A stretch of 64,000 nucleotides of DNA from Escherichia coli 042 (GTDB lineage Bacteria > Pseudomonadota > Gammaproteobacteria > Enterobacterales > Enterobacteriaceae), in the NCBI RefSeq assembly GCF_000027125.1, contig NC_017626.1; one strand, given 5' to 3'. The position numbers and the translations under genes are program-made. Below, in pieces: positions 8,272 to 9,306 of the stretch. The first letter of the stretch is position 1. Each line of letters begins with the position of its first letter. The notes beneath the pieces were generated by a model that saw only the letters and a list, made by a program, of their open reading frames with translations, made no database searches and was not told where the DNA came from.

Positions 8272-9306
8272 TACTTTCCAAACCTGTAATTTTTACAGGT
8301 ACATTCAGTTTCTTTAGTAAATCGGAAGTAAATAAGATACGTAGCACATATCAATATAGGTTAAACGAGATTAAGTTTTAATTATTTCGATTAGGTTTAA
8401 ATTTATGTTTTTTTCCTGATGAGTGTCAATATGTGAACAGAAAAGGAATTCCATGGTTAAGTCAATATTTACAAAAAATGAAAATATTGCTTTTTTGATA
8501 AGAAGAAAAAGACATTCAGTTTCATAAGGTTATTGGCAATATAACGTTCAATTCTTACTTGCATTTTATATTAGCCAGGAACTTTGCCCTGAGGTGTTAG
8601 GAATAGTCTTAATGTGTTGTGTAATGGACTAGTAAAAAAACAAGTTTAAATGATAAGAAATAGAATATAAAACTATCATGAGTCATAATTAAAGATGATT
8701 TGCCAATCAGTAAGGTGTTTTAATGGATTAACATGCCGCACAAAATGGTTATGGGTGTTCATCCCAATAAGTGATGAAAAATTAAACAGGTGTAAGTACG
8801 TCATCTGTCCGGTAAGCCCCCTAAGAGCCAAATTAAGTGAAGTTAAACGAAGACTGCCAGTTGTCACAGGAACGATGGCCTCTTTGCCAGGGCACTGGAT
8901 TCAGTCATCTGTGCGCGTTACTCTAACTGGCACTCGAACGTCGGCGATGGGGTTACCGGTGGATCAGGCCGTTCCTGTGGCGTAAACGTTTTTATGTCAG
9001 TACCAACAGATTTACCACATTTATCATCTTAACAGTTTGAGTGTAAATGCAGGCTGCGTCGCAAAGGGAGGAAACTGAGTGGCGTGTTCAGTCTAAAAGA
9101 GGGTTGATGCCAGCATACAGGGCGAAGCTGGTCAACAAGTCAACATTAAGATAATGGAATATTCGGAGAGAAACGTCAGGCAGTTGACCTTAAATGAAGA
9201 GGAAGATATATCCCCAGGAAAATTAATGCTGGTGTAATAAATACACCAACATTAATCAGGTCTGATTATTAATCAGACAAATATCGTTAATCCGGCGAAT
9301 TATGAA

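Follow-up and report, generated by a model that had tools for sequence, protein, structure and literature searches.

The spacer between the fimbrial ecp/mat operon and the ykgMO operon of Escherichia coli 042 occupies positions 8272-9306 of the stretch that we analysed (64,000 nucleotides of contig NC_017626.1, hereafter the window). The open reading frame (ORF) list and the annotation of homologous complete genomes place its two ends exactly at the start of ecpR, also called matA (7681-8271), and at the stop codon of ykgO (9307-9450, 9307 being the last base of the stop). The same sources give ecpA (7019-7606) beyond ecpR, and ykgM (9447-9713) and ykgR (10075-10176) beyond ykgO. All five genes are on the minus strand, so that ykgMO lies upstream of the ecp operon and runs in the same direction. 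As ykgM, ykgO and ecpR are all read from the minus strand, the interval must also terminate the upstream ykgMO operon. The spacer was found in 5067 of 5426 complete E. coli genomes. Very probably, what separates the two co-directional operons is a composite of the known ecp control region, of neutrally evolving DNA that holds a decayed and doubtful ykgL, and of the terminators of ykgMO.

The sequence-only reading of this DNA had described about 1 kb with only short ORFs, and this was borne out. No ORF of at least 100 amino acids (aa) occurs in 8272-10649, the longest such stretch of the window. Both ORFs that this reading had cited are present, at 8676..8867 on the minus strand (63 aa) and at 8695..8985 on the plus strand (96 aa). 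The second is the longest of the interval and its length is marginally above chance, shuffled sequences giving a mean of 64 aa (standard deviation 19) and reaching 96 aa in 5% of cases. The claim of a low G+C content with A/T runs stood for the interval as a whole (36.6% G+C versus 49.5% for the whole window, within the lowest 1% of 1035-bp windows), but A/T richness turned out to be confined to the ecpR-proximal 430-480 bp. Indeed, the G+C content was bimodal, with 27.3% in 8272-8700, 44.8% in 8701-9046 and 42.0% in 9047-9272. The first of these segments is the most A+T-rich 429-bp stretch of the entire window. It contains six of the eight runs of at least five A or T present in the interval, which amounts to about 14 per kb versus 4 per kb window-wide, and TpA makes up 11.2% of its dinucleotides versus 5.0% window-wide. 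The proposal of a mainly regulatory or silencing region is correct in the main, but it fits ~8272-8750 with its 27-29% G+C, which would hold the ecp promoter and its silencing region. This is under half of the interval, the rest being G+C-normal, fast-evolving spacer and putative terminators.

We aligned the ecpR upstream regions of E. coli, of a divergent Escherichia (L010, ~82% identical across the locus) and of five Klebsiella species, fetched with EcpR as the query. One of the few conserved blocks was a sigma-70 promoter for ecpRABCDE (8429..8400, minus strand), with a -35 element TTGACA at 8429..8424, an 18-nt spacer holding an A7 tract (8414..8408) and a -10 element TAAATT at 8405..8400. 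The -35 block CATATTGACAC and TAAATT are kept in E. coli, the divergent Escherichia and all five Klebsiella species, and TTGACA-18-TAAATT was also the top promoter-like match of the region in a simple consensus scan (10/12). The transcription start predicted in silico from this promoter, ~8392, lies 121 nt from the GTG at 8271. The sequence-only reading had pointed to published promoter mapping as a check, and the passage of PMC10038029 that cites Martinez-Santos 2012 puts transcription initiation 121 bp upstream of the start codon of ecpR, in agreement with ~8392 when the GTG at 8271 is taken as the reference. The 121-nt 5' leader predicted for the ecpR mRNA (8272..8392, minus strand) fits both the conserved promoter and this published distance. 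It carries a hairpin, CCUGUAA-AAA-UUACAGG (8283-8299; fold z-score -2.2), just upstream of a Shine-Dalgarno-like GGAAAG, and 8259-8300 was invariant in the 73 E. coli sequences of our population alignment. The 5' end of ecpR itself is ambiguous over 8224..8271 (minus strand): the K-12 annotation starts at the GTG at 8271 (196 aa), and the Prokaryotic Genome Annotation Pipeline (PGAP) at the ATG at 8223 (180 aa). This 5' extension is out of frame in Klebsiella, the start of the divergent Escherichia gene lies between the GTG and the ATG, and population variants within the extension comprise one synonymous and two non-synonymous changes.

Farther upstream, at about -219 to -185, we found a putative activator site (8577..8611, minus strand) made of an RcsAB-type box and a TTCCT pair. 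The box, TAAGACTATTCCTA (8611..8598), matches 13 of the 14 positions of the RcsAB consensus TaAGaatatTCctA, in the form quoted in PMC3950696. It includes the first TTCCT, the second lying 17 nt away at 8581..8577, and the resulting TTCCT-N17-TTCCT (8577-8603, minus strand) is invariant in 10 E. coli sequences. Two conserved blocks of the alignment, TAAGACTATTCCTAA (8611..8597) and AAGTTCCTG (8584..8576), together make up this arrangement, and Klebsiella keeps the site in the form TAAGAATAGTCTTA ... ATCCT. Only two other exact matches to the core pattern TAAGANNNNTCNTA occur in the window, at 26153-26166 and 38103-38116. Martinez-Santos et al. 2012 reportedly described two distal TTCCT boxes bound by EcpR, and we take TTCCT-N17-TTCCT to be that EcpR site. 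MatA/EcpR acts with RcsB. MatA-RcsB heterodimers and repression by H-NS have both been reported, and the RcsAB-type box in the putative activator site fits such a heterodimer.

IHF is needed for ecp activation according to the literature. A candidate IHF site, AATGAAAATATTG, lies at 8477..8489 on the plus strand (about -85 to -97). It has one mismatch to WATCAANNNNTTR and is the only match with at most one mismatch in 8272-8800, but the assignment is a weak one, made from the motif, and one further base differs in K-12-type strains. A 59-nt block invariant in E. coli (8519..8572, minus strand) holds three motifs shared with Klebsiella, AATAACCTTATGAAA (8534..8520), CAAGTAAGA and ATATAAAA. Finally, a distal conserved block, CATTTTGTGCGGCAT (8733..8747, minus strand, about -341 to -355), which contains TTTTGTGCGG, lies at the far edge of the similarity to Klebsiella, which stops at ~8750. 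Incidentally, we noticed that the match at 38103-38116 is a palindromic RcsAB-like box, TAAGACGATTCTTA, in a very A+T-rich stretch (~37880-38500), the intergenic DNA that separates betT from ehaA, a gene for an autotransporter adhesin. Judging from these sequence features, it could mark a second Rcs-controlled adhesin promoter.

By analogy with K-12, the A+T-rich tract at 8272..8700 is most likely an H-NS binding and silencing platform, a view drawn from its base composition and from chromatin immunoprecipitation (ChIP) on the K-12 homologue. In K-12, the DNA between ecpR (minus strand) and ykgL (plus strand) has been described as a 'promoter island' (310529_398 in U00096.2; Panyukov and Ozoline 2013, PMC3661553), and the published list gives it as bound by H-NS in every ChIP study that was used there. 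Applying a K-12 coordinate offset of 776 bp, verified on yaiS/tauA, we mapped this island to ~8240-8637 of the window. A similar organization is seen in Klebsiella, where the ecpR upstream region spans 0.9-1.1 kb, of which 0.9 kb is ORF-free, and where the proximal 480 bp have 28-34% G+C. The literature also reports that ecpA is derepressed in a Klebsiella hns mutant.

Spacer identity to the window was bimodal within E. coli, with 2181 records at 95% or above and 2891 at 90-95%. Window-type alleles were seen in ZH193, a B2 strain, and among O157 strains, and K-12-type alleles in K-12 and two other genomes examined. The two types differ by ~8% (7.6%) in the spacer versus ~2% in the flanking genes. 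Balancing selection between them was considered and dropped, 7.6% being close to the neutral expectation from third-codon-position divergence in the flanking genes. Lehti et al. 2013 are said to have found a phylogroup-linked mat promoter polymorphism that affects Mat/ECP fimbria expression, and our two spacer alleles presumably correspond to that 'mat promoter polymorphism linked to phylogenetic group'. The A tract of the promoter spacer varies as well. In a survey that made use of a pattern scan of metagenome contigs, 47/47 window-type sequences had an A7 tract; the 40 K-12-type sequences had A7 in 27 cases, A8 in 12 (including MG1655) and A6 in one. A6, A7 and A8 correspond to promoter spacers of 17, 18 and 19 bp, so that the 042 promoter has an 18-bp spacer versus 19 bp in K-12 MG1655; the Klebsiella spacer is 17 bp. 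The length of this A tract may contribute to the weak expression of ECP/Mat in K-12. We also considered phase variation at the tract and judged it unlikely, A8 and A6 being confined to the K-12-type allele and apparently lineage-bound. As to the strain itself, just 25 of the 5072 matching records were at least 99% identical to the window spacer, and in ecpA and ecpR the window departs by 1-2% from each of the genomes inspected, which places the strain in a sparsely sampled lineage carrying the window-type allele.

Beyond the limit of Klebsiella similarity, ~8750-9220 (~45% G+C) is an Escherichia-only spacer that evolves at a roughly neutral rate. The 96-aa and the 63-aa ORF both belong to this part. 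Could ~8750-9050 encode a lineage-specific protein, or be the remnant of a once-functional gene? The 96-aa ORF is intact in most window-type haplotypes, it exceeds 95% of shuffles in length, some E. coli annotations predict it as a 'hypothetical protein', and the ~45% G+C of this middle segment is nearer to that of coding DNA. Yet, when the window was compared with nine complete genomes, no haplotype other than the window type had the two ORFs intact; both carry frameshifts or stops in K-12-type strains, the 96-aa ORF in all K-12-type sequences, and also in one window-type strain (L006). Variants in the 96-aa frame, counted over the 73 E. coli sequences, were spread evenly over the three codon positions (14/16/14), with 10 synonymous and 30 non-synonymous changes, as expected without selection. 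The polymorphic sites of the 63-aa ORF showed the same lack of bias (10/10/8); the real neighbour genes ecpA and ykgM gave 0/1/20 and 2/0/11. A search of 5.8 billion protein clusters with the 96-aa ORF retrieved only E. coli 'hypothetical' proteins of 59-126 aa, with no relative outside E. coli; Pfam and NCBIfam yielded nothing for four window ORFs or for YkgL; and the middle segment is only 55-65% identical to the divergent Escherichia. A protein-coding origin of this segment is thus highly improbable, and both ORFs are chance products of a single haplotype. With ORFs broken between haplotypes, variants uniform by codon position and no family homology, the non-coding reading made at the outset holds. 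Indeed, the outcome is stricter than the earlier statement that at most one of the short ORFs would be real, as none of them behaves like a gene.

At the other end of the spacer, two hairpins follow the ykgO stop codon (9222..9278, minus strand). The first is at 9278..9260 and the second at 9256..9222, followed by UUUUCC. Together, they have a predicted energy of -29.6 kcal/mol, the minus strand having a fold z-score of -7.1 and the plus strand one of -5.7. To judge from these folds, they are most likely the intrinsic terminator of ykgMO, even though the U-run is short (4 U) and a simple terminator scan gave no flag. There is a T/C polymorphism at 9229; the C of the window still allows G-U pairing on the minus strand but produces a C-A mismatch if the plus strand is folded, which favours a function in the ykgMO transcript. 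A third hairpin is predicted in the ykgMO sense within 9090..9136 (minus strand), GUUGACCAG ... CUGGCAUCAAC at 9136..9103, then CCUCUUUU. The terminator scan did not flag it either. Its stems are invariant and its loop highly variable in the 73 E. coli sequences, singletons aside, and it is a possible back-up terminator of ykgMO. Just upstream of ykgM, at 9722-9739, we noticed a perfect 18-bp palindrome, GTTATGTTATAACATAAC, a Zur-box-type operator that is consistent with a zinc-regulated ykgMO operon. In K-12, a candidate cis-antisense small RNA, ECS017, covers the ykgM promoter (PMC3175480).

K-12 annotates a small gene, ykgL (b0295), in this part of the spacer, and the sequence-only reading had been unable to assign it to either frame. 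Neither the 63-aa nor the 96-aa ORF is ykgL. Alignment to the K-12 gene (NC_000913.3, 312112-312339, plus strand, 75 aa) places its homologue at 9047..9272 on the plus strand. The DNA is ~95% identical and the first 25 codons are nearly the same, but the frame is destroyed in 042. There are two 1-bp deletions (9120-9122 reads G3 where K-12 has G4, and at 9206 a single A replaces AA), so the frame breaks into ORFs of 35 codons (9047-9154) and 27 codons (9154-9237). The closest genomes also carry ykgL as an annotated frameshifted pseudogene. O157 strains have the second deletion only and encode a 63-aa form with an altered C-terminus.

One may ask whether ykgL encodes a genuine small protein in Escherichia and has merely decayed to a pseudogene in the lineage of this strain. 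The length of the ORF was scored in 68 sequences, from 10 genomes plus metagenome contigs. The 75-aa form was intact in about half of them (33), one had 81 aa and four had the 63-aa form of O157-type strains; however, the ORF was 35 codons or shorter in the remaining 30 (35 aa in 25, 11 aa in five), and the C-termini of K-12 and O157 YkgL differ by a frameshift. Variants in the two halves of the ORF comprised one synonymous and five non-synonymous changes, one of them a nonsense mutation, and two synonymous and six non-synonymous changes, respectively. PGAP does use the name 'protein YkgL', and the divergent Escherichia has a 77-aa ORF at the same place and in the same orientation with a C-terminal part in common (ERNVRQL...LMLV; 15/27 identical). 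Yet in that genome ATA stands in place of the ykgL ATG, no alignment is possible over the N-terminal half, and the ykgL segment is the least conserved part of the spacer (40-60% identity). All YkgL relatives among the 5.8 billion protein clusters were from Escherichia, and a full HMMER scan of 1.84 billion representatives gave a sole hit outside the genus, a spurious one to a 2426-aa repeat protein. Transcription over ykgL has also been reported: RNA-seq of K-12 lists ykgL and ykgO as overlapping convergent transcripts, and in E. coli Nissle 'ykgL' was co-induced with ykgM and ykgO under zinc chelation. This co-induction can be explained by overlap, as the ykgL annotation extends over 50 nt of the terminator at the 3' end of ykgMO. 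As a matter of fact, the C-terminus of K-12 YkgL is encoded by the predicted ykgMO terminator hairpins. Collectively, these observations make a genuine ykgL gene quite unlikely. Most probably, ykgL is an accidental ORF, read on the opposite strand across the ykgMO terminator zone; it is evolutionarily unconstrained and in any case disrupted here. Nowhere in Pfam, NCBIfam, the 5.8 billion clusters or the 1.84 billion HMMER representatives was there a match to a conserved protein, the finding that the sequence-only reading had named as the mark of a coding region. Some YkgL relatives in the databases (P0003, P0011, P0012 and P0112) include fusions of the 96-aa ORF with YkgL and of YkgM with YkgL, or internal duplications, which shows that indels or assembly errors are frequent in the spacer and provide a route by which such ORFs enter databases.

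The spacer is not evenly variable. In the alignment of 73 E. coli sequences, 15% of the columns of 8750-9220 were polymorphic, but three runs were invariant, at 8917-8945, 8999-9033 and 9151-9186 (the last a 36-nt block, assigned to no strand). Two invariant runs of at least 35 nt occurred in just 0.9% of shuffles. Moreover, within 8750-9220, long exact matches to the divergent Escherichia are confined to 8999-9033 and 9151-9186. A coding function does not account for the invariant runs. This suggests that they are some constrained non-coding element, perhaps tied to the ykgMO 3' region.

A regulatory RNA missing from the annotation was weighed in two forms. The first, a structured RNA suggested by three long-range inverted repeats in 8795-8995, was rejected, this segment folding no better than shuffles (z-scores of -0.1 and -0.9 on the two strands). 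The other is a long ykgMO 3' untranslated region (3'UTR), or an RNA derived from it, using 9186..9151. On the ykgMO-sense strand of E. coli, a hairpin and a U-run lie downstream of this block, and in the divergent Escherichia the same block abuts a terminator-like hairpin as well. The two hairpins are, however, different and non-homologous. The rise of 'ykgL' reads with ykgMO under zinc chelation in Nissle would also fit, but it needs only the 50-nt overlap mentioned above. A covariance scan of 7000-11000 with Rfam 15 gave no match on either strand at an E-value of 1 or less. On balance, an RNA of this kind is unlikely. We give a similarly small chance to the idea that the ykgL DNA is a long structured 3' region of the zinc-starvation-induced ykgMO transcript, read on the other strand, although the ykgMO-sense strand of the ykgL region does contain three hairpins and the 36-nt block 9186..9151 that is kept in the divergent Escherichia. 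Were this true, the ykgMO 3' region could insulate the co-directional ecp operon from a ~1000-fold derepression of ykgMO, or else release a Zur-dependent 3'UTR-derived regulatory RNA, and 8999-9033 would be a further cis element.

We come back to the reading of the interval as a spacer of two co-directional operons, in which three zones would follow each other in the direction of transcription. In the first, from 9306 to ~9090, ykgMO transcription would end at the two strong hairpins and possibly at the third. The second, from ~9090 to 8750, would be Escherichia-specific filler DNA changing at about the neutral rate. The third, from ~8750 to 8272, would be the ecp/mat control region. There, the 27% G+C tract would be coated and silenced by H-NS, as the ChIP data indicate for the K-12 equivalent. 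The LuxR-type EcpR/MatA and RcsB would bind the RcsAB-type box and the TTCCT pair at about -185 to -219, and bending by IHF between this site and the promoter most likely lets EcpR/MatA-RcsB relieve H-NS silencing. Relief would activate TTGACA-18-TAAATT and yield the 121-nt leader from ~8392, with positive feedback on ecpR. What was observed in the sequences compared here is the promoter, the sequences of the boxes and the conservation of both. Binding and mechanism would carry over from the literature on enterohaemorrhagic and enteropathogenic E. coli (EHEC/EPEC; Martinez-Santos et al. 2012), and on the newborn meningitis E. coli (NMEC) strain IHE3034 and K-12 (Lehti et al. 2012, 2013).

As compared with these known ecp/mat regions, nothing essential differs in 042, whose copy is 98-99% identical to the B2/E-type allele. 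It shares with them a position directly upstream of ecpR/matA, a promoter at the published 121 bp, the TTCCT pair and RcsAB-type box far upstream, an A+T-rich DNA that would by homology be H-NS-silenced and activated in an IHF- and RcsB-dependent manner, and two phylogroup-linked promoter alleles, the K-12 type being that of phylogroup A. A likeness is also seen with H-NS-silenced loci that RcsB activates as a heterodimer with a FixJ/NarL-type partner, as do BglJ-RcsB (bgl, leuO) and RcsA-RcsB (cps), namely an RcsAB-like half-site with TTCCTA, a distal site in A+T-rich H-NS DNA, and anti-silencing. In contrast with those systems, RcsB pairs at ecp with EcpR/MatA, whose own gene comes first in the operon under control, which would result in autoactivation, and the ecp site is unusually far upstream, at about -200.

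Several points weigh against this reading. First, if the published 121 bp were counted from the ATG at 8223, the start would be at ~8344, and a second promoter-like match, 8381..8353, adjoins that position; this match is not conserved in the ecpR upstream alignment. Second, promoter-like sites are not in excess in the simple scan (6 found versus 6.8 expected). The K-12 island, A+T-rich and homologous to this DNA, was defined by the PlatProm algorithm (PMC3661553), the mark of such islands being an unusually dense set of overlapping promoter-like sites. Third, the H-NS motif and curvature analyses proposed in the sequence-only reading both came out negative. The high-affinity H-NS 10-mer motif TCGATAAATT has no match with two or fewer mismatches in 8200-9306, and AA/TT helical phasing, a proxy for curvature, was not significant; the involvement of H-NS therefore rests on base composition and published ChIP. 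Fourth, the transcription start, protein binding and termination are deduced from sequence and from work on other strains, and the identity of the EcpR boxes depends partly on what Martinez-Santos et al. 2012 reportedly described. Last, the three invariant blocks are above chance, so that the first two zones are not wholly functionless, and the 77-aa ORF of the divergent Escherichia at the position of ykgL also belongs on this side.

The region was already known, and what the analysis brings is mostly a matter of annotation hygiene. The place of ykgL in 042 is now assigned, ykgL and the two larger ORFs are not to be counted as genes, and the ecp control elements are intact. For genome scans, the spacer usefully illustrates how a known fimbrial promoter under H-NS silencing can account in full for a long A+T-rich gap. 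A loose end is the set of invariant blocks that lie in its ykgMO-distal half.

Incidentally, we noticed other differences around the locus. In E. coli O157:H7 strain 2159 (L003, 3205-4032), an ISEc8 element of the IS66 family has inserted upstream of ykgM, and the alignment lacks the ykgR region. In Klebsiella oxytoca (NZ_BCZK01000002.1, L012/L017), a second gene for an EcpR-like regulator, 58% identical to the query, is found ~7.5 kb from the first on one and the same contig. Finally, 10650-11792 of the window (minus strand) is an intact gene for a 380-aa NADH-dependent flavin oxidoreductase; K-12 and K-12-type strains have only a 90-bp remnant of it, annotated as ykgP or as a partial hypothetical protein.

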